From Nitrospinales bacterium (GTDB taxonomy: Bacteria; Nitrospinota; Nitrospinia; Nitrospinales; VA-1): 64,000 nt of DNA. Under the pieces are notes generated by a model, which ran no database searches, was not told the DNA's origin, and saw only the letters and a program-made list of their open reading frames with translations. Positions 11,736 to 31,504 of the stretch are shown one piece after another. The translations under genes were made by a program, and so were the position numbers. The DNA lies in contig CBDCWG010000007.1 of the NCBI GenBank assembly GCA_965223345.1, positions 93,426 to 157,425 of the forward strand, read 5' to 3'. Every line of letters starts with the position of its first letter. The first letter of the stretch is position 1.

Positions 11736-14570
<2,835 letters not shown>

Positions 14571-14595
14571 AAAAATATAAATATTCCAAGTAATA

Positions 14596-15789
14596 TTAGT
14601 CACCCTCTGGATCAACAAAGGGTTTCAGTTTTCTGTTAACAAAATGACTAGGCCGCCAACCGCCGAATATTTTTTCAATTAAAAATGTGTTACATGCGGA
14701 TACACCAGTACCAATAATCGGGTCAGCCATTCCTGCTCCCCGGCTAAGAAGGTACCGCAAACCTTTTGCTGGAATTTTGCTAATCCACCCTTTATTCGCC
14801 ATTTCATTCATATACTGGCGCACAAAGTTTTCATCAGGATTTATTCCTACGATCCATTCTTTAAATTTATCGGCCTCATCCAAAAGAATTAAAAATTCAT
14901 CAAATGATCTTTCCCCACTATTAATCACTTCCCGTATAGCTCTACCATTATTAAGAACAATTTCTTGAAACTGATCTTTTTCAGAAATTTCTAAACCAAT
15001 CCTGCGCATTAACTCTATATTGCGAATGCGAATAATATCCGAACAAACATCTGAGGTATAGTACTCACCTCCATAATGAGCTGCTAGCATTAACTCACTT
15101 TTCGCAGTAAGAATGTTTCCTATCAGTTGCGCTTCTGTCACATCCTCCGAAGAGGGTTTGTTTGATCGATATAACCTGTTCAACTCTTCGAAATTAAGAT
15201 TCGTGTTAATGTGAAATGATGGTCGATTTAATTCAACCCTGAAAAAAAAATCACTAGGCAGCGGAATTCCTGGAAGCATTTTTGAAATTACACATCGAAT
15301 TGCTTCATCAATGAAACCCTCATCTTCTAGATCATCTAAAGCAGCTTGTATAAGACCTCCTTTTGTGAAGTAATTACTATTTAACTTTTTGGTCGGAACT
15401 TCATTGGAGAATCTTTCAGTCAACTTTTTTGCTTCCCTTTTTTTGTATCCTCTTCGTTGCAGAATATCCCGCAACCTTTTTTTACGTGAAGGTAGTTCAC
15501 CAGATTCTTTGCTACCAGCATACGTAACCGATACAAATGAATGAATCCGCCGTCCAGCCTTTGTCTCTGATTTAGTACCAAGTTGATCCTCACAATAGAC
15601 GGCCGAAAAATTTGTTTTTTTTAATAATTTAAGTATGGTTTTAAAACCAATTGTAGAATCAAGTCCGACTAAGCTGCCGTGGCCCAAAACTAAATGAACG
15701 TTTTGGTAGTAAAATAGGGCTTCCGCGAGCTCACCTGCTGTAATTGCAGCCCCTCCCTCAGAACGACGAAGAATTACTTTTTCAAACAT
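14596..15789 (-). CDS. hypothetical 397-aa protein encoded in a very AT-rich single-gene islet
   Basis: Long clean ORF in a segment with roughly 35-40% GC, against about 63% in the flanks. No domain recognised. Confidence 0.6.
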   Translation of the reverse strand: MFEKVILRRSEGGAAITAGELAEALFYYQNVHLVLGHGSLVGLDSTIGFKTILKLLKKTNFSAVYCEDQLGTKSETKAGRRIHSFVSVTYAGSKESGELPSRKKRLRDILQRRGYKKREAKKLTERFSNEVPTKKLNSNYFTKGGLIQAALDDLEDEGFIDEAIRCVISKMLPGIPLPSDFFFRVELNRPSFHINTNLNFEELNRLYRSNKPSSEDVTEAQLIGNILTAKSELMLAAHYGGEYYTSDVCSDIIRIRNIELMRRIGLEISEKDQFQEIVLNNGRAIREVINSGERSFDEFLILLDEADKFKEWIVGINPDENFVRQYMNEMANKGWISKIPAKGLRYLLSRGAGMADPIIGTGVSACNTFLIEKIFGGWRPSHFVNRKLKPFVDPEGD

Positions 15790-15938
15790 TTACCCTTATC
15801 ATTCAATTATTTATATGGAAGGATCTGAAGGTATTTAGAGATCGCACACTGGTTTCAAAAAGCGCTGATCTGATTGATTATATAGCCTATTTAAACTCGA
15901 ACGAAAATTATCGAGTCTAATTTGTTGGATGCAGGGTT

Positions 15939-15958
15939 TAAAAAGTACGAGGGTGTAC
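15939..15958 (-). terminator. weak intrinsic terminator after atpC
   Basis: Minus-strand AGTAC-ACCCTC-GTACT hairpin followed by TTTTTAAA. The 5-bp stem makes it weak. Confidence 0.25.
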
Positions 15959-16368
15959 TAATTCTCTTCGGTGTGTTCGAGGCGGGCGATGGCGCGGAAG
16001 AGCTTGAGCTGGGTTTCCTCGAATTCCTTTTCGCTGAGATCGGCGCGGCCCAGGATCTCTTCGGCCTTGGCTTTGGCGGCTTCGGCGCGGGCGCGATCGA
16101 CTTCGTGCAGGAATTCGGCGGTTTCGGCGAGGACGGTGACGCGGTTTTCGGTCACTTCGAGGTAACCGCCGCTGACGACGAGGCCGGTGGTCTTGCCATC
16201 GACTTCATAGGACAGCGGGCCGGGCCGGAGGTTGGTGATGAGCGCGGCGTGGTCGTACAGGATGCCGAGGTCGCCCTCGATGCCGGGGGCATTGACCTGA
16301 TCGACGAATTGCTCGACGACGTTTTTCTCGGGGGTGACGAGGTGCAGCAGCAGTTTGTTTTCGGCCAT
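15958..16368 (-). CDS. atpC: F1 ATP synthase epsilon subunit
   Basis: MAENKLLLHLVTPEKNV... Confidence 0.85.
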   Translation of the reverse strand: MAENKLLLHLVTPEKNVVEQFVDQVNAPGIEGDLGILYDHAALITNLRPGPLSYEVDGKTTGLVVSGGYLEVTENRVTVLAETAEFLHEVDRARAEAAKAKAEEILGRADLSEKEFEETQLKLFRAIARLEHTEEN

Positions 16369-16500
16369 GGTTGCGTGTTTTTCTCGGTCGTGTTGAATCT
16401 TATCTGTGACGGTCACCCTTCGCCAGGCTCAAGGTGACGACGATCCACGGGTCTGGACGCCGGGTCGGCGGCTCGGCGGCCACTCGGTGTCCAGGCTTTC

Positions 16501-18844
<2,344 letters not shown>

Positions 18845-25831: not shown

Positions 25832-27781
25832 ATGAGCGACAACGCAAAAAAATTCTACGTGACCACACCGATTTACTACGTGAACGACGTGCCGCACATC
25901 GGGCACGCGTACACCACCATCGCGGCCGATGTGATCGCGCGCTACAAAAAGCTCGACGGCCATGAGGTGTTCTTTCTCACCGGCACCGACGAACACGGGC
26001 AGAAGGTGCATCAGGCGGCGAAGGATCTGGGCGTCTCGGCGCAGGAACACGTGGACAAATTGAATGGGCGCTTCAAGGAGCTCTGGGTGCGCCTCAACAT
26101 CACGAACAACGATTTCATCCGCACCACCGAGGAGCGGCACAAAAAGGTGGTGCGCGAAATCCTCACCGATCTGTACGAGCGCAAGGAGATCTACAAGGAC
26201 ACTTACGAGGGCTGGTACTGCACGCCGGACGAGCGGTTCTGGACGGAGAAGGACCTGGTCAACGGCAACTGCCCGGAATGCGGCCGCAAGGTGGACAAGA
26301 TCCGCGAGCACAATTATTTTTTCAAGATGGGGCAGCACCGCGACTGGCTCGCAGATCACATCAAAAACAACGAGCACTTCATCCTGCCGGCTTCGCGGCG
26401 CAACGAGGTGCTGGGTTTTCTGAACAAGCCGCTGGAGGATCTGTGCATCTCGCGGCCGGTGGAGCGGATGCCCTGGGGCATCCCCCTGCCCTTCGACGAA
26501 AAATACGTCACCTACGTCTGGTTCGACGCGCTCATCAACTACATCTCGATCTTCGGCTCGCCCGATGCGATCCGCAGTTCGGGCTTCTGGCCGGCCGACC
26601 ACCACCTGGTGGGCAAGGACATCCTCACCACGCACGCGGTGTACTGGTCCACCATGCTGAAAGCGATCGGGCTGGACCTGCCGAAAAACATCTTCGCACA
26701 CGGCTGGTGGACGGTGAACGGGCAGAAGATGTCGAAATCGCTGCGCAATGTGGTGGAACCCAACCTGCTGATCGATCAGTTCGGCGTGGACGTGATCCGC
26801 TACTTCCTCATGCGCGAGGTGCCGTTCGGCCTGGACGGGGACTTTTCGCACAAGGCGCTGATCGGCAGGCAGAACAGCGATCTCGCCAACAACCTGGGCA
26901 ACTGCCTCAACCGCACCGTCAAGATGATGCACAAGTATTTCGACAACGGCGTAATCCCGGAACCCGGCGAGAGCGGCCCGGAGGACGCCGGCCTCAAAGA
27001 CACCGCCGCCAGGACGGTGGCGGAGGTGAAAAAACTCTACGACGATCTGGCGTACAACAAGATCCTCACGGAAATCTGGATCCTGGTGGACGCGACGAAC
27101 CAGTACATCGACAAGGCGGGTCCCTGGAACCTGGTGAAGACCGAAGAAGGCAAACAGCGCCTCAAGACGGTGATGTACAACGCCGCCGAATCGCTGCGCG
27201 TCGTGGCGATGCTGATCTATCCGTTCATGCCGCAGTCGGCCGAGAGCATGATGCAGCAGCTCGGCGTCGAAACGCCGATCGATAAACAGGGCATGGCTTC
27301 GGTGGAACAATGGGGCGGATTGCCCTCCGGCAAGCCCACGAAACCCGGTGCGCAACTGTTCCCGCGCATCGACGACAAGGCCGCGGCGAAGCTGCTGGCG
27401 GCGGCGGGAGCGGACGAAAAACCCCAGGCGCCCGCGAAAAAACCGGAAGCGCAGGACGGCCAGGTTTCGATCGACGATTTCATGAAGATCGATCTGCGCA
27501 CCGGCACCATCGTGGAAGCGGAGAAGGTGAAAAAATCGCGCAAGCTGGTCAAGCTGCAGGTGGACATCGGCAGCGAGACGCGGCAGGTGGTGGCGGGCAT
27601 CGCCGAAGCCTACGAGCCGCAGGACCTGGTGGGCAAGACCATCATCCTGGTGGCCAACCTGAAACCGGCGAAGCTGATGGGCATCGAATCGCAGGGCATG
27701 GTGCTGGCGGCGAGCGACGACGACAAAGTGCTGCTGGCCGGGTTCGCAGAAGAACCGGCGAAAGGAGTCCGCGTCAAATGA
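25832..27781 (+). CDS. metG: methionine--tRNA ligase with C-terminal tRNA-binding domain
   Basis: HIGH motif (PHIGHAYT), KMSKS motif, C-terminal EMAP-like domain. Confidence 0.95.
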   Translation: MSDNAKKFYVTTPIYYVNDVPHIGHAYTTIAADVIARYKKLDGHEVFFLTGTDEHGQKVHQAAKDLGVSAQEHVDKLNGRFKELWVRLNITNNDFIRTTEERHKKVVREILTDLYERKEIYKDTYEGWYCTPDERFWTEKDLVNGNCPECGRKVDKIREHNYFFKMGQHRDWLADHIKNNEHFILPASRRNEVLGFLNKPLEDLCISRPVERMPWGIPLPFDEKYVTYVWFDALINYISIFGSPDAIRSSGFWPADHHLVGKDILTTHAVYWSTMLKAIGLDLPKNIFAHGWWTVNGQKMSKSLRNVVEPNLLIDQFGVDVIRYFLMREVPFGLDGDFSHKALIGRQNSDLANNLGNCLNRTVKMMHKYFDNGVIPEPGESGPEDAGLKDTAARTVAEVKKLYDDLAYNKILTEIWILVDATNQYIDKAGPWNLVKTEEGKQRLKTVMYNAAESLRVVAMLIYPFMPQSAESMMQQLGVETPIDKQGMASVEQWGGLPSGKPTKPGAQLFPRIDDKAAAKLLAAAGADEKPQAPAKKPEAQDGQVSIDDFMKIDLRTGTIVEAEKVKKSRKLVKLQVDIGSETRQVVAGIAEAYEPQDLVGKTIILVANLKPAKLMGIESQGMVLAASDDDKVLLAGFAEEPAKGVRVK

Positions 27782-29169
27782 CGATCGACACGCACGCCCA
27801 TCTGGACATGGATTCCTTCGACACCGACCGGCAGGAGGTGATCCAAAGGGCCCAGGAACAGGGCGTGGATTACATCCTCAACATCGGCTGCGACGTGGAA
27901 AGCAGCGTCCGCTCGCTGGAGCTGGCCGAGCGCTACGATTTCATCTACGCCACGGCGGGGGTGCACCCGCACGACGTCAAGTCGATCAACGGCACCACCT
28001 ACGCGGACCTCAAGCGGTTGCTCGCGCACCCGAAGATGATCGCGGTGGGAGAGATCGGGCTGGATTTTTATAAGAACTACTCGCCGCAGGACATGCAGAA
28101 AGAGCACCTGCGCAAGCAGATGCAATTGGCGAAAGAGGTGGACAAGCCCATCATCGTGCACTGCCGCGACGCCAAGGAGGACATGATCGCCATCCTGTCC
28201 GAGTATTACCCGGTGAACGAGAAGGCCCGATCGGGCATCTTTCACTGCTTCTCGGGCGATCAGGAACTGGCGGAAGCGGCGCTGGAACGCGGCTTCTACA
28301 TTTCGTTTTCCGGATCGGTGACGTTCAAAAAATCCGACGAACTGCGCGAGGTGGCGAAGACGATCCCGGCGGACCGGCTGTTCGCCGAGACGGACTGCCC
28401 CTACCTTGCGCCGGTGCCCAAGCGCGGCAAGCGCAACGAACCGGCGTACGTGAACTTCACCACCGAACACCTGGCCGAGATCCGCGGGCTCAGGCTGGAG
28501 GATGTCAAGCGCACGATGGAGCTGAACTTTTTCGAGCTGTTCGGCATCGGCAAAAACGCCCCGATGGGCACGGTCTCCTATCAGATCCGCAACTCGCTGT
28601 ATCTCAACCTGACGACGCGGTGTACCAACGACTGCGTGTTCTGCTCGCGCCTGACCCGGCCGGTGGTGCAGGGCTACAACCTCAAGCTGGAGCGCGAACC
28701 GTCCGCAGAGGAAGTGTGGGCGGCGATCGACGACCCGGCGAAATACGATGAAGTGGTGTTCTGCGGTTACGGCGAGCCGACGCTCAGGCTGAACGTCATC
28801 AAGGAAGTGGCGAAAAAGATCAAGGACGCCGGCGGCCGCGTGCGGCTCAACACCAACGGCCACGGCAACGTCATCAACAAGCGCAACATCCTGCCGGAAC
28901 TGGCCGGACTGGTGGACGAGGTGTCGGTGAGCCTCAACACCGACACCGGCGATGCTTACGATGAGATCTGCCGGCCGCTGCCGGGATTCCGCAACGGCAT
29001 CTACGGCAAGATCAAGGAATTCATCGCGGAGGCCAAGATTCACATCCCCAAGGTGCAGGCCACGATCGTGACGCAGCAGGAAGGCGTGGACGAAACGGTC
29101 TGCGAGGACATCGTCAAAAAAGAATTCGGCGTGGACTACCGGGCCCGGCGCTACAACCTGGTCGGATGA
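27778..29169 (+). CDS. TatD-family hydrolase fused to a C-terminal radical SAM domain
   Basis: N-terminal TatD (MTIDTHAHLDMD...). C-terminal half carries a CTNDCVFC CxxxCxxC motif. The ATG overlaps the metG stop. Start taken at Met157 of the track ORF. Confidence 0.8.
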   Translation: MTIDTHAHLDMDSFDTDRQEVIQRAQEQGVDYILNIGCDVESSVRSLELAERYDFIYATAGVHPHDVKSINGTTYADLKRLLAHPKMIAVGEIGLDFYKNYSPQDMQKEHLRKQMQLAKEVDKPIIVHCRDAKEDMIAILSEYYPVNEKARSGIFHCFSGDQELAEAALERGFYISFSGSVTFKKSDELREVAKTIPADRLFAETDCPYLAPVPKRGKRNEPAYVNFTTEHLAEIRGLRLEDVKRTMELNFFELFGIGKNAPMGTVSYQIRNSLYLNLTTRCTNDCVFCSRLTRPVVQGYNLKLEREPSAEEVWAAIDDPAKYDEVVFCGYGEPTLRLNVIKEVAKKIKDAGGRVRLNTNGHGNVINKRNILPELAGLVDEVSVSLNTDTGDAYDEICRPLPGFRNGIYGKIKEFIAEAKIHIPKVQATIVTQQEGVDETVCEDIVKKEFGVDYRARRYNLVG

Positions 29170-29651
29170 GCGTTCCCGAGGCGGGGCCGGACTCCCCGCA
29201 AGCAGGAGGTCCCATGAATCCCGATGAGCAGCCCCTCTCCCCTGCCCCGAAAGCGCGCGGCGTCGGCTGGATCTCTCTGGGAGCCCTCTTCGGCGGGCTG
29301 AGCGTGATGCTGGGGGCGTTCGGCGCGCATTCCCTCAAAGAGCGCCTGACCGAAAAGAGTCTCGCCACCTTTCACACCGCAACCGATTACCTCGCCTACC
29401 ACGCCATCGCCATCGTGCTGGTGGGCATCCTTTCGTTGATGCTCGGCGAACGCGGGCACCGGGCGCTGAAAAAAGTCGGCCTGTTTTTCACCGCGGGCAT
29501 CCTGCTTTTTTCCGGCAGCCTGTACGCCCTCGCCTTCGACGGACCGCGCTTTTTCGGCCCCGTCACCCCCTTCGGCGGCCTCTGCTTCATGATCGGCTGG
29601 TTCACCTTGGCCGTCACCCTCGCCAAAAACTTCCGCTCGAAACGGGATTAA
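29166..29651 (+). CDS. DUF423 family membrane protein
   Basis: Four TM helices. Contains GAFGAH. Confidence 0.7.
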   Translation: MSVPEAGPDSPQAGGPMNPDEQPLSPAPKARGVGWISLGALFGGLSVMLGAFGAHSLKERLTEKSLATFHTATDYLAYHAIAIVLVGILSLMLGERGHRALKKVGLFFTAGILLFSGSLYALAFDGPRFFGPVTPFGGLCFMIGWFTLAVTLAKNFRSKRD

Positions 29652-29696
29652 AATTCTAAAAAAGCCCGCAAACCTTTTTTGGGTATTTAAATTTAG

Positions 29697-30644
29697 ATGT
29701 CGAAAGACAGCCCAGATATTCTCCAATGCCCCTGTCAAGAAATCCACAAGGTTGAGCATGATGATATCTTGTTAAAACTTGAAAAAATTAGGGAAACTTG
29801 TCCTGCTTTAAAAAGCATCCTCATCCCCGATCGTGGATGGCATGAATATAAAAATTGGCATAAAAAAGATGACACGGTGGCATTTCATAGATCAATTCTA
29901 CTTATGGGCTTGAAAGATGGTTTTTTAGGAAACATAACAATTCTAATCCATAAATATTGTTTAGATAAACACGACATAAATCCCAATGTAAAAAAGCAAT
30001 ACATTAAAGACCTAGAGGAAAAATGGTTTAGCAAAACTGATTATAAAGAGCGACACAAAAAGTACCGAATTTTTATGGGCAAAATTGTTGAGTTAGCTTT
30101 TTCAAATTGGCTAGAAAGTAAGGAATACACCATATCAAACTTAGAGGCGTGGAGTGGGCAATATGACATAACTGCCTACAAGGAAAAGTTGACCTATAAT
30201 TTTGAGATAAAGTTTATCGGGCAGGAAGATGAGGATTTTAAGCACATTGTAAATAATCTTCGAGGAGGAACCTCTGTAGGTGGCGTTTCCCCTTATATAG
30301 CAGCAAACTTTCTCCTTTTTAGAGTATATGAGGCTGCTAAACAATTAGAGAATGCAAAAGGACCTGAACATCGAGTTGCAACAATAATTATTGATGGAAT
30401 GGCTTTTCCATATTTTAAAATTCTAATATTGGATCATTGGATCGATTGGTTTGAGCATCCGACTTTTAATGAAACTAGTGATCCAACTTGGGAGGAGTTT
30501 ATTGCATCTCAACGGAGCAAAAAATACCCCGATATTGATCATGAATTGCCAGAATTACTAAAAAAATTATCTGCGATAAAAATAATGAAAATAAATGGGT
30601 TCCAACTTGAAGAAGTAATTAAGTACAAAAACCCAAATATATAA
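29697..30644 (+). CDS. hypothetical 315-aa protein in a second very AT-rich single-gene islet (possible PD-(D/E)xK-like motif)
   Basis: The segment is roughly 33% GC. Contains D-x13-E-x-K (YDITAYKEKLTYNFEIKF), which is weak inference only. Confidence 0.6.
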   Translation: MSKDSPDILQCPCQEIHKVEHDDILLKLEKIRETCPALKSILIPDRGWHEYKNWHKKDDTVAFHRSILLMGLKDGFLGNITILIHKYCLDKHDINPNVKKQYIKDLEEKWFSKTDYKERHKKYRIFMGKIVELAFSNWLESKEYTISNLEAWSGQYDITAYKEKLTYNFEIKFIGQEDEDFKHIVNNLRGGTSVGGVSPYIAANFLLFRVYEAAKQLENAKGPEHRVATIIIDGMAFPYFKILILDHWIDWFEHPTFNETSDPTWEEFIASQRSKKYPDIDHELPELLKKLSAIKIMKINGFQLEEVIKYKNPNI

Positions 30645-30676
30645 ATCCCCAAATATTTACATTCCTCTTCTTCTAT

Positions 30677-31504
30677 TCACCCCCTGAATCTAAACTTCAC
30701 GCCCCACTTTCTGTAGGCGAGATAGAGCGCCAGCGACATGAGGCTGAGCACCAAAAGGTGCGGGCCGAGGAAGGCGGCGTTCCAGATGGGGCCGAAGCGC
30801 AGCTCGCCGCGCACTTCGCCGGTGTAGTGCTTGAGCATCTCGGCGTATTCGATCATCAGGTGCACGGGGTAGTTCACTTCATGGCTCTCGGGGGTTCGCT
30901 CGACGGGAACCTCGAACAGCTTCTGCTCACCGCCGCGCAGGGTGAAGCCCACCATTCCCTTGAAGGTGTCGGCGACCAGGCCGGGCGGCATGAGCAGCAT
31001 CAGCCGCACATTCTTGAGCGCCGGGGACTGGTTCGTTAAAAGGATCTTCAGCCGCGTCTCACCGCTTTCCTCCACGCTTTCGATCTTTCCTGCCACCTGC
31101 GATTCCACCTGCTCGCGGTAATAAAACGAATCGGTGTGAATCAGGCTTTGCGATGTTTTGTCTGAGGGCTGGTTGCGGTAGTGCACCATGGCGATCAGCG
31201 GATAGCGCCCGACGCTGCGCACCGGCGGATGGTCGGAATTTTTCATCGTGATGGACTGGCCGGGGTCGAGTTTGCGGAGATGGGTCAGCATGGCCATGGT
31301 GTGGTGGAAATGGATCATGGGGTGCACGTGGTGCAGGGTCCGGTCGCTGCGGTTTTCCAGGGTCAGAAACACGTGCACCTTTCCCTCTTCGCTGACCTGG
31401 GTCTGGGTGGAAATGTGCAGGGGGGCTGTGTTCGCCCAAGCCGGCTTTATCGGAACGGCGGCGCAAACGAAAAGGAGGCCTGCGCCTAAAGCTAGGATTT
31501 TCAT
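30677..31504 (-). CDS. secreted, C-terminally membrane-anchored protein with a His-rich segment
   Basis: Signal peptide. HHVHPMIHFHH motif. C-terminal TM helix. Divergent from the SPFH operon. Confidence 0.55.
   Translation of the reverse strand: MKILALGAGLLFVCAAVPIKPAWANTAPLHISTQTQVSEEGKVHVFLTLENRSDRTLHHVHPMIHFHHTMAMLTHLRKLDPGQSITMKNSDHPPVRSVGRYPLIAMVHYRNQPSDKTSQSLIHTDSFYYREQVESQVAGKIESVEESGETRLKILLTNQSPALKNVRLMLLMPPGLVADTFKGMVGFTLRGGEQKLFEVPVERTPESHEVNYPVHLMIEYAEMLKHYTGEVRGELRFGPIWNAAFLGPHLLVLSLMSLALYLAYRKWGVKFRFRG

Follow-up and report, generated by a model that had tools for sequence, protein, structure and literature searches.

What is a lone AT-rich gene doing in the gap between uvrA and the ATP synthase operon of a Nitrospinaceae bacterium, how did it get there, and what might its product do? 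The host has a UvrA protein 79-94% identical to Nitrospinaceae UvrA proteins, and the gene lies within the 64-kb stretch of its DNA that was analysed here (the window). Foreign islets in chromosomal hotspots are well known, so the islet itself is ordinary and its value lies in the gene. Our reading, to which we assign a probability of about 0.5, is that the islet is a one-gene cargo, specific to the strain and acquired horizontally, at a variable place of the Nitrospinaceae chromosome, and that its product probably acts by itself in phage exclusion or abortive infection.

Composition and content of the islet

The islet extends from the first base past the uvrA stop codon to the last base before the atpC stop codon (14571-15957), both borders coinciding with stop codons of the flanking genes. 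The conserved left flank is uvrA (11736-14570, + strand; Pfam UvrA_DNA-bind and UvrA_inter, E ~1e-38 to 1e-40), and the conserved right flank is atpC, which encodes ATP synthase epsilon and is the last gene of the atp operon (15958-16416, - strand; Pfam ATP-synt_DE_N, E = 1.7e-25), followed by the Pfam-identified atpD (ATP synthase beta; 16501-17970, - strand). GC content is 37% in the islet versus 58% in the background (z = -4.6); specifically, the interval 14575-15960 has 37.4% GC, compared with a mean of 57.8% (sd 4.4) across all 1386-nt windows of the 64-kb window. When profiled in 300-nt windows, GC is 34-41% across 14650-15999 and 60-65% in the flanks. The sequence-only reading, which had placed an islet of roughly 35-40% GC in a backbone of about 63%, was thus right about the islet but set the backbone too high: it is ~58% over the whole window and 60-65% in the immediate flanks only. 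The difference persists on calculation, also in the codon-usage profile that had been proposed as a check, with a GC3 of 0.29 for the islet ORF versus 0.89 for uvrA, 0.78 for atpC and 0.81 for atpD.

The only other stretch of the window below 45% GC is a second islet, with 31-37% GC and one ORF across 29700-30750. Its gene (29697-30644, + strand; GC 0.31-0.37) encodes a 315-aa protein that has no Pfam or PADLOC match and, in a set of 5.8 billion proteins, only 5 homologues, which makes it a near-orphan. The earlier description of an islet of the same type at 29652-30670 therefore holds for composition and layout, both of which are alike, but not for the protein, given its near-orphan status.

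The sole gene of the first islet (14596-15789, - strand), recognized as an ORF with its translation, specifies a cytoplasmic protein, 397 aa long, whose stand-alone family is uncharacterised. As had been proposed, the protein has no recognisable domain: it matched nothing in Pfam, NCBIfam, PADLOC, PHROGs or the PDB sequences, and PADLOC v2.0.0 returned no family even at E values up to 10. The gene is under purifying selection, with a dN/dS of 0.12 relative to its closest homologue and of 0.11-0.21 for the family. A membrane effector was considered and rejected, as there is no transmembrane segment and no 19-residue window exceeds a Kyte-Doolittle score of 1.14, and so was a type II toxin-antitoxin module, since the islet holds a single ORF and no neighbour is conserved across the loci of the family.

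The gene was placed correctly between the convergent uvrA and atpC in the sequence-only reading; it is itself co-oriented with the atp operon and convergent with uvrA only. Its stop codon is separated from that of uvrA by an AT-only spacer of 25 bp, AAAAATATAAATATTCCAAGTAATA (14571-14595), in which the terminator scan detected no hairpin or terminator-like site. At the opposite end, a possible weak terminator of the atp operon was noted by eye (15939-15959, - strand), consisting of a 5-bp stem (AGTAC/GTACT), a 6-nt loop and TTTTT, and overlapping the atpC stop codon; the scan demands at least three G-C pairs, of which this stem falls short, and the element is at best a candidate for that role. 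The gene has, as had been claimed, its own AT-rich upstream region, a non-coding segment of 168 bp and 34.5% GC (15790-15957, - strand) that presumably contains its own promoter and includes a presumed ribosome-binding site (AAGGG) lying 4-8 nt upstream of the ATG. Scans for promoter consensus sequences and terminators gave nothing above chance, the segment has no Rfam match, and no conservation was detected between the DNA upstream of the gene and the upstream regions of nine homologues.

A variable site beside uvrA

The synteny of ubiD-uvrA and atpC-atpD is kept in related Nitrospinaceae, with atpD, atpG and atpA also syntenic with atpC, and the uvrA-atpC gap could be compared across five lineages. 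It is empty in one genome (31 bp; L072) and in another pair (145 bp, 24 contigs read; L075/L076), and in N. watsonii it holds a CBS-domain gene of native GC content. The closest relative (L071; UvrA 94% identical) carries in the same gap an AbiJ-like gene of 239 aa (E = 1.5e-7), a BrnA antitoxin gene and a 45-aa ORF, in an insert of 43% GC versus 62%. A blastn comparison of the islet with the equivalent locus in four related Nitrospinaceae genomes detected no similarity. The comparison with relatives that had been proposed thus found the islet gene missing from the syntenic site. Because the gap is either empty or filled with other cargo in these relatives, the site is a variable hotspot and the islet gene is strain-specific. 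Foreign composition, absence from relatives and alternative cargo at the same site are established directly for this islet.

This arrangement resembles the defence hotspots of core genomes, for instance those of Pseudomonas aeruginosa (PMC10250203), in that a fixed gap between core genes is either empty or occupied by varying AT-rich cargo, no integrase is required, and the cargo of the sister genome comprises an Abi-like gene and a toxin-antitoxin component. It differs in that the cargo studied here is one gene of predicted role, and the five lineages compared set the scope of the likeness.

The low-GC stretch could in principle be native sequence or an assembly chimera, with no acquisition at all, and the window is indeed a single contig of a probable metagenome-assembled genome, a type of assembly in which chimeric joins occur. 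We consider this hardly credible: syntenic core genes with intact ends flank the insert on both sides within one contig, the sister genome carries AT-rich cargo of another kind at precisely this site, the islet gene is intact and under purifying selection, and the second islet, of like composition, lies 14 kb away.

As for the route of acquisition, the absence of integrase, tRNA and obvious direct repeats noted from the letters was borne out. No tRNA was found in the entire 64-kb window and no integrase among the adjacent genes (ubiD-like, uvrA and atp operon genes), and neither terminal inverted repeats nor a significant target duplication were found at the islet. The sole direct repeat spanning the flank pairs 15 nt inside the 3' end of uvrA, GGAAGTATCTGAAGG (14536-14550, + strand), with GGAAGGATCTGAAGG (15817-15831, + strand), which lies 126 bp inside the AT-rich segment and away from its edge. 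Chance probably accounts for this 14/15 match: it is not significant, since 4% of shuffles that preserve composition contain one as good, and, given also the position of the right copy, it was rejected as an att site or target duplication. In the absence of an integrase, a tRNA and an att-like repeat, recombination running through the conserved genes on either side would most likely be how the cargo was gained and swapped.

A large nameless family in phages, prophages and bacterial chromosomes

One search recovered 194 full-length homologues of the islet protein and another 1,852 representative clusters at 50% identity, almost all of them 390-410 aa long. The family is large yet nameless; no domain model matched it in the libraries searched, and it lacks a structural relative that convinces. 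It is present in 61 of 185,579 species genomes from at least six phyla, including Pseudomonadota, Nitrospirota, Desulfobacterota, Actinomycetota and Chloroflexota, but in only one of 72,556 plasmids and, as a single copy, in one of 5,426 complete E. coli genomes. Family genes are nearly always AT-richer than their host, with a GC content lower than that of the flanks by a median of 0.12 (50 loci). No conserved partner gene emerged from an all-against-all BLAST of the neighbours in 52 loci, and that hypothesis was rejected, the best neighbour family reaching only 5 of the 52. Wherever it occurs, the family gene behaves as a 'moron', an accessory gene complete in itself that prophages and mobile elements carry. 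The idea of a defence, toxin or orphan accessory gene is consistent with the patchy spread over phyla, the low GC content, the defence and mobile-element neighbours and the occurrence in P2-like slots; its orphan component fails, with ~1,850 clusters known.

Several members reside in phages. A full-length homologue, WP_047090168.1, is encoded in a prophage of E. coli UTAK-6, where the gene lies reversed between gpV and gpS, that is, in the orf30 slot, as it does in six P2-like phages from IMG/VR. In another P2-like phage (L082), the family gene is the sole AT-rich cargo between the portal gene gpQ and gpA, the old/tin hotspot. Elsewhere, a distant homologue shares a primase-helicase slot with a putative AbiC gene (L093), and a lone family gene occupies a portal-terminase slot. 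Searches of the sequenced phages in INPHARED by tblastn, with the islet protein or the E. coli homologue as query, gave no match, and no paper mentioning WP_047090168 was found in the literature. P2 phages are themselves parasitised by mobile elements, the P4 satellites. Of eight loci of unknown function that were picked at random from the main defence hotspot of such P4-like satellites, six protected against phage (PMC13586616). The gpQ-gpA old/tin site is a P2 defence hotspot (PMC9122126), and the family, through L082, resides in an experimentally validated defence hotspot of mobile elements. The orf30 slot is known to receive horizontally acquired genes in general and is not documented as a defence site in particular (PMC3091744). 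The P2-like hotspots comprise old/tin, Z/fun and orf30; like old, tin and fun, the family gene is a reversed, AT-rich, single-gene insert in the two of them that it occupies, orf30 and old/tin; unlike these phage genes, the islet gene is chromosomal, with no prophage around it. The systems named in the main text of the three papers (PMC9122126, PMC3091744 and PMC13586616) do not include the family.

The positions just described would also suit a selfish mobile gene, for instance a homing nuclease or recombinase of a new, free-standing kind, which would insert copies of itself in the gaps that separate highly conserved genes. The family gene is always alone and often reversed between core genes (uvrA and atpC, gpV and gpS, gpQ and gpA, primase and helicase, portal and terminase), no integrase accompanies it, and the borders of the islet are the stop codons of both flanking genes. 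We nevertheless regard this explanation as improbable. Searches of the protein (Pfam, NCBIfam and PHROGs) and of 66 members (Pfam) revealed no motif or domain of a nuclease or recombinase, and the islet has neither terminal inverted repeats nor a significant target duplication. Copying would also be difficult to reconcile with the single copy in a single complete E. coli genome and with a nearest homologue of the islet gene that is merely 66% identical. In the P2-like phages, moreover, family genes are 58-66% identical, versus 64-86% for gpV and gpS; divergence that tracks or exceeds that of the flanks indicates that the gene has long been inherited vertically at its site and did not home there recently.

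In bacterial genomes, defence genes recur in the vicinity of the family. The closest homologue adjoins GmrSD_N/GmrSD_C and SNase genes; other members have AlpA, resolvase, GmrSD and HNH genes as neighbours, or adjoin a Dnd cluster or an IS transposase. Across 53 loci, PADLOC matched at least 14 defence families among the 150 nearest neighbours, including mads, type IIG restriction-modification, HEC-07, HEC-09, NERD+UvrD, bSEFIR and Nsn, as well as Sng, PD-T4-2, PD-Lambda-2, BrxH, DndE and PDC-S31. A distal control set, taken from these loci at a distance of 6.5-10 kb, was matched too (mads, AriA and type I restriction-modification specificity subunits), but the comparison of near with far genes is uninformative because the distal set is swamped by one type I specificity protein that matched dozens of models and because large mads islands reach into it. 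Many bacterial loci have ordinary housekeeping genes as neighbours.

A further parallel is offered by the single-gene Abi proteins in the loose sense (for example, AbiJ and AbiC), which are likewise stand-alone, cytoplasmic, a few hundred residues long and free of a partner gene, and AT-rich and borne by mobile elements; the family adjoins Abi-like genes or is replaced by them (L093 and L071). Conversely, it shows no similarity to the Abi models of PADLOC and has no HEPN, nuclease or membrane domain.

The main competitor of a defence role is a horizontally acquired moron whose benefit is something else, be it in stress response, regulation, the cell surface or metabolism, or a counter-defence function that serves the element itself. 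It predicts the same evidence of horizontal transfer and moron status, no defence HMM matches the protein, and many of the neighbours are housekeeping genes. The phage slots are likewise ambiguous, since the cargo of P2 hotspots extends to partition systems and toxins (PMC9122126), and orf30 is described only as a place where horizontally acquired genes reside (PMC3091744). We judge this to be a serious but rather unlikely explanation. Known defence genes recur beside the family across unrelated taxa, a family gene occupies the old/tin hotspot, the sister genome has Abi-like and toxin-antitoxin cargo at the identical chromosomal site, and there is no conserved metabolic partner. A counter-defence gene, in particular, would not be expected to stand alone on a chromosome outside any phage, which is the situation in the window and at two other loci (L004 and L008). 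The islet gene is a candidate new defence gene, because elsewhere its large nameless family occupies the slots in which phages and bacteria keep their anti-phage genes; the genomic context points to a role as a single-protein phage-exclusion gene.

Predicted fold and proposed mode of action

The AlphaFold2 model of the 397-aa protein has a pLDDT of 76 overall and below 50 in the C-terminal segment 313-380. In this model, an N-terminal Rossmann-like alpha/beta domain (approximately residues 1-255) is followed by a conserved helical C-terminal region. A structure search of the viral structures in BFVD gave nothing. The predicted fold weakly resembles that of cyclodipeptide synthases (CDPSs), which have a Rossmann fold like that of class-Ic aminoacyl-tRNA synthetases, and this faint likeness hints at a possible nucleotide or aminoacyl-tRNA substrate. 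The catalytic residues of the CDPS AlbC are Ser37, Tyr178, Glu182 and Tyr202. Membership in the CDPS family was rejected: hhalign gave a probability of 0.27% for the family alignment against four solved CDPSs (AlbC, Rv2275, YvmC and BtCDPS), and none of 66 members has a CDPS match in Pfam. The family further differs from CDPSs in its extra C-terminal region of ~140 residues and in the absence of a biosynthetic gene cluster around its genes.

These results bear on the proposal that the protein is a biosynthetic enzyme akin to CDPSs or class-I aminoacyl-tRNA synthetases that would turn an aminoacyl-tRNA or nucleotide substrate into a small molecule. We consider it very improbable. Tailoring enzymes that might accompany such an activity were sought by Pfam among the neighbours, and no recurrent P450, oxidase or methyltransferase was found, nor any conserved neighbour in the 52 loci. 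No paper tying cyclodipeptide synthases to phage defence was found in the literature.

Pfam searches of the 66 aligned members otherwise returned only noise (Radial_spoke_3) and a sub-threshold motif of the phycobilisome linker domain (PF00427). The latter concerns a segment of ~50 residues (235-293; HYGGEFYTS...LLRR...E) that is reminiscent of the repeated Y..FY....S.vIEL...hlLGR motif of ApcE and other linkers. It was matched in 16 of the 66 members, all below threshold (best E = 9e-4), and not in the islet protein itself; the family profile, searched against the PDB sequences, likewise recovered only a weak ApcE motif (E = 1e-3, ~45 residues). The similarity stays below the Pfam gathering score, covers a helical hairpin only and has no biological tie to phycobilisomes; it probably reflects a shared small structural motif.

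For the defence reading, a simple division of labour can be envisioned, in which the conserved N-terminal Rossmann-like domain would be an enzymatic or nucleotide-binding effector, and the conserved, poorly modelled C-terminal helical region would serve in sensing or oligomerisation. Extended to all members, this reading would make the family of ~400-aa proteins a new and widespread single-protein anti-phage system, with a predicted, hitherto undescribed Rossmann-like enzyme as effector, possibly acting on nucleotides or aminoacyl-tRNA, and carried, in hosts as different as E. coli and marine nitrite oxidisers, at chromosomal hotspots as well as by P2-like prophages and phage-plasmids. We put this broader claim forward tentatively, as possible rather than probable.

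Overall, the placement in P2 hotspots, the Abi, GmrSD, Dnd and mads neighbours and the swap with an AbiJ-like gene at the same site suggest a role in phage exclusion, and the presence of WP_047090168.1 in an E. coli prophage makes the family directly testable. Uncultured marine nitrite oxidisers of the Nitrospinaceae swap cargo at a fixed site beside uvrA, which bears on virus-host dynamics in the nitrogen cycle of the ocean.

An AT-rich islet in a variable chromosomal gap

The islet between uvrA and atpC (14571-15957) differs markedly in composition from its surroundings. GC content is 34-41% in 300-nt windows across approximately 14650-16000, with flanks at 60-65% in the sliding profile, and the stretch 14575-15960 has 37.4% GC against a mean of 57.8% (s.d. 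4.4) over all 1386-nt windows of the 64-kb window (z = -4.6). GC3 is 0.29 in the islet ORF versus 0.89 in uvrA, 0.78 in atpC and 0.81 in atpD, so the compositional difference claimed by the sequence-only reading persists on calculation. The AT-rich DNA runs from the first base past the uvrA stop codon (uvrA, 11736-14570, plus strand; Pfam UvrA) to the stop codon of atpC (ATP synthase epsilon, 15958-16416, minus strand), with atpD (ATP synthase beta, 16501-17970, minus strand) beyond it, both recognized by Pfam. It contains one long ORF (14596-15789, minus strand; 397 aa), preceded by a 168-bp upstream region of 34.5% GC and separated from uvrA by a 25-bp spacer. The description of a single-gene islet in a convergent gap thus holds, with the qualification that the gene, convergent with uvrA, is itself co-oriented with the atp operon. 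Equally borne out is the lack of mobility hallmarks: there is no tRNA in the entire window and no integrase among the genes adjoining the islet, and the sole islet-spanning repeat (14/15 match; 14536-14550 and 15817-15831), whose right copy lies 126 bp within the AT-rich DNA, is not significant, an equally good match occurring in 4% of composition-preserving shuffles.

The UvrA of the window is 79-94% identical to UvrA proteins labelled by their sources as Nitrospinaceae, Nitrospina or Nitrospinota, and all the relatives examined share the order ubiD-uvrA followed by opposite-strand atpC-atpD-atpG-atpA. The gap itself consists of 31 bp with a hairpin in L072 (UvrA 83% identical), 145 bp in L075/L076 (79%; 24 contigs read, all alike), a CBS-domain gene of native GC (0.57 versus 0.59) in N. 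watsonii (L077; 80%) and, in the closest relative (L071, a 3.25-Mb contig; 94%), a different insert of 43% GC in a 62% GC background. In the latter insert (L071:8830-10130), an AT-rich ORF of 239 aa is matched over its C-terminal part by the PADLOC AbiJ model (E = 1.5e-7); it is accompanied by a gene for a BrnA antitoxin and by an ORF of 45 aa, possibly what is left of BrnT. Directly before atpC, L071 has a motif of ~22 nt in two copies, CTTCGACAAGCTCAGGATGACA and CTTCGACAGGCTCAGCATGACA, reminiscent of a small repeat element. The islet DNA shows no similarity to the gap loci of L071, L072, L075/L076 or L077, and no relative was found to hold the islet gene at the syntenic site, with native GC or otherwise. 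The gap, empty or filled with other cargo in relatives, thus constitutes a variable hotspot, whose 397-aa gene is specific to this strain. In a contig of an uncultured Nitrospinota MAG (L067:474-593), a 40-residue match of 70% identity to the N-terminus only of the family protein could be a decayed remnant of the gene.

Horizontal acquisition of the islet, as cargo of a chromosomal hotspot, is well supported; an assembly artefact is hardly credible. Given that there is no recombinase, tRNA or significant repeat, the simplest route of arrival would be homologous recombination via the conserved uvrA and atp flanks, a route also proposed for core-genome defence hotspots of the kind described in PMC10250203.

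Elsewhere in the window, GC falls below 45% only at ~29.7-30.7 kb, in a second islet (29652-30670; 31-37% GC) with one ORF (29697-30644, plus strand; 315 aa) flanked by a DUF423 gene (29166-29651, plus strand) and a 275-aa unknown gene (30677-31504, minus strand). Its protein matches nothing in Pfam or PADLOC and has only five homologues among 5.8 billion proteins (38-43% identity), all on contigs shorter than 3 kb; it resembles the first islet in composition and single-gene layout, as had been proposed, but not in family size. Nearby, the longest ORF (27310-29169, plus strand; 619 aa) appears by eye to be a fusion of a TatD-like hydrolase region (MTIDTHAHLDMD...) with a radical-SAM-like one (CTNDCVFCSR); its true start is probably internal, the Arg/Gly-rich leader being implausible.

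A large family of stand-alone proteins

The 397-aa protein has no match in Pfam, NCBIfam, PADLOC v2.0.0, PHROGs v4 or PDB sequences, in agreement with the sequence-only reading, but it is no orphan. A word-seeded search recovered 194 homologues (38-66% identity), nearly all of 390-400 aa and all labelled 'hypothetical', and a profile search with HMMER over 1.84 billion cluster representatives recovered 1,852 proteins at E <= 1e-3 (721 at E <= 1e-30), aligned end to end in nearly all cases and without informative fusions among the best 150. The family is strongly conserved from its first residues on (consensus MFEKIVLRRS) and in the motifs AEALLFYQNVH, HYGGEFYTS, SGERSFDEFL, NPDE and GGWRPSHF, with G19, Y28, S250, F299, Y326, R345, G377, W378 and F391 invariant. 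Ratios of dN/dS of 0.11-0.21 in five pairs, including the window gene and its closest homologue, indicate that the gene is functional and under purifying selection. The protein has a pI of 8.7 and no predicted transmembrane segment.

An AlphaFold2 model (66-sequence alignment; mean pLDDT 76, pTM 0.73) consists of a confident alpha/beta domain (residues 1-255) followed by a helical region, in which residues 313-380 are modelled poorly despite their conserved sequence. Viral structures gave no match, and nothing in the PDB qualified as a convincing structural relative. The top Foldseek match was AlbC, a solved cyclodipeptide synthase (CDPS), at E = 0.014. When four solved CDPS sequences were aligned and their profile compared with that of the family by hhalign, the probability was 0.27%, and none of 66 family members matches a CDPS Pfam model. 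By any sequence criterion the family is thus not CDPS; the likeness of the modelled fold is no more than a weak lead, and a CDPS-like biosynthetic enzyme appears very unlikely. Residues 235-293 (14911-15087, minus strand) show a weak, recurrent likeness to the phycobilisome linker/ApcE repeat motif (Y..FY....S.vIEL...LLGR....E), with sub-threshold PF00427 matches in 16 of 66 members and E = 1e-3 for the family profile against PDB ApcE. We read the likeness as a common helical hairpin with no functional implication.

Patchy distribution and phage hotspots

When a single genome of each species was scanned, the family occurred in 61 of 185,579 species, mostly Burkholderiales and Gammaproteobacteria, with further carriers in Alphaproteobacteria, Zetaproteobacteria, Nitrospirota, Desulfobacterota, one Solirubrobacterales genome and one Chloroflexia genome. 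Family genes have a median GC 0.12 lower than their surroundings (50 loci with enough flank; more than 0.05 lower in 39). When neighbouring ORFs at 52 loci were compared all against all, no partner proved to be conserved: even the most recurrent neighbour family was present at five loci only. The gene is a self-contained unit. Mobile-element or defence genes are frequent neighbours. Nitrosomonas marina has AlpA, resolvase, GmrSD_N and HNH there, and Mariprofundus an IS transposase; a DndB-E cluster and an NYN/HEC-09 gene are further examples, and the closest homologue, P0002, adjoins GmrSD_N, GmrSD_C and SNase. Among the 150 genes nearest to family members at 53 loci (two on either side), PADLOC matches were mads (two loci), type IIG restriction-modification, HEC-07, NERD+UvrD, bSEFIR, NsnA, SngC, PD-T4-2, PD-Lambda-2, BrxH, DndE and PDC-S31. 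Control genes 6.5-10 kb away also match defence models (mads, AriA and a single type I specificity subunit, which matched dozens of models), and we treat the enrichment as no more than suggestive. In Nitrosomonas marina (L001:6165-7898) and on a Logan contig (L002:1855-3588), a 577-aa protein unmatched in Pfam and PADLOC is encoded divergently from the family gene, 103 bp away; missing beside other family members, it probably shares the island with the family gene as unrelated cargo.

Among complete E. coli genomes, one of 5,426 (strain UTAK-6) encodes a full-length member, WP_047090168.1 (398 aa; 41% identity to the window protein, E = 3e-112). Its gene (GC 0.37 versus 0.53 for the prophage) lies on the opposite strand between the genes for baseplate protein gpV and for gpS of a P2-like prophage, which is the P2 orf30 position, one of three regions of P2-like phages that commonly hold non-P2 genes predicted to be horizontally acquired (PMC3091744). 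Separate cargo at the gpQ|gpA hotspot of this prophage (L079:25067-28721) encodes a DUF3696 protein (AAA ATPase-like), a 340-aa hypothetical, a small hypothetical and DUF3850, so the prophage bears cargo in two slots. No deposited phage genome (0 of 50,697) and one of 72,556 plasmids contain the family, the latter a Buttiauxella IncFIB replicon of phage-plasmid-like gene content. IMG/VR yielded 14 viral loci, six of them P2-like with the gene in the gpV|gpS slot. In a seventh P2-like contig (L082) it lies between the genes for the gpQ portal and the gpA replication protein, with no other AT-rich cargo there; this is the old/tin locus, an experimentally shown hotspot of anti-phage systems (PMC9122126). 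Distant homologues (21-35% identity) lie between Toprim primase and DnaB helicase, alone in L089-L092 and, in the related phage L093, directly followed in the same slot by a putative AbiC gene (L093:9187-10137; Pfam putAbiC, E = 1.7e-14); another, in L086, lies between portal and terminase. A study from 2026 describes less-populated defence hotspots within P2 tail genes; it also reports phage protection by six of eight loci of unknown function, picked at random from the principal defence hotspot of P4-like satellites, which are mobile elements parasitising P2 phages (PMC13586616).

Across P2-like lineages the family protein is 58-66% identical, versus 64-86% for gpV/gpS, and every copy has its full 398 aa, which means that the gene has long resided in these phages, evolving somewhat faster than the structural genes, and did not home there recently. 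A selfish mobile gene is accordingly unlikely: the family gene co-diverges with its flanks and has no nuclease motif.

Probable role of the family

The most probable role of the window protein, to which we assign a probability of about 0.5, would be that of a one-protein phage-exclusion or abortive-infection factor. This role is favoured by a self-contained gene, AT-richer than its surroundings and patchily distributed, by frequent defence-gene neighbours and the occupation of P2 hotspots, and by its interchangeability at uvrA|atpC with AbiJ-like and toxin-antitoxin cargo. A moron, that is, a self-contained accessory gene of mobile elements, conferring a benefit other than phage exclusion is a possible but distinctly less probable alternative. 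For phage exclusion, the N-terminal Rossmann-like domain could act as the effector, with S10, Y28, H32 and D36 as candidate active-site residues, and the conserved C-terminal region might serve in sensing or oligomerisation, a division drawn from conservation and fold class only.

As a genomic phenomenon, the islet is of a known kind, hotspot cargo or a moron. In the literature searched we found no mention of the family. Candidate defence families are numerous; the present one is large, cross-phylum and located in validated hotspots, and it is directly testable because E. coli carries a copy.
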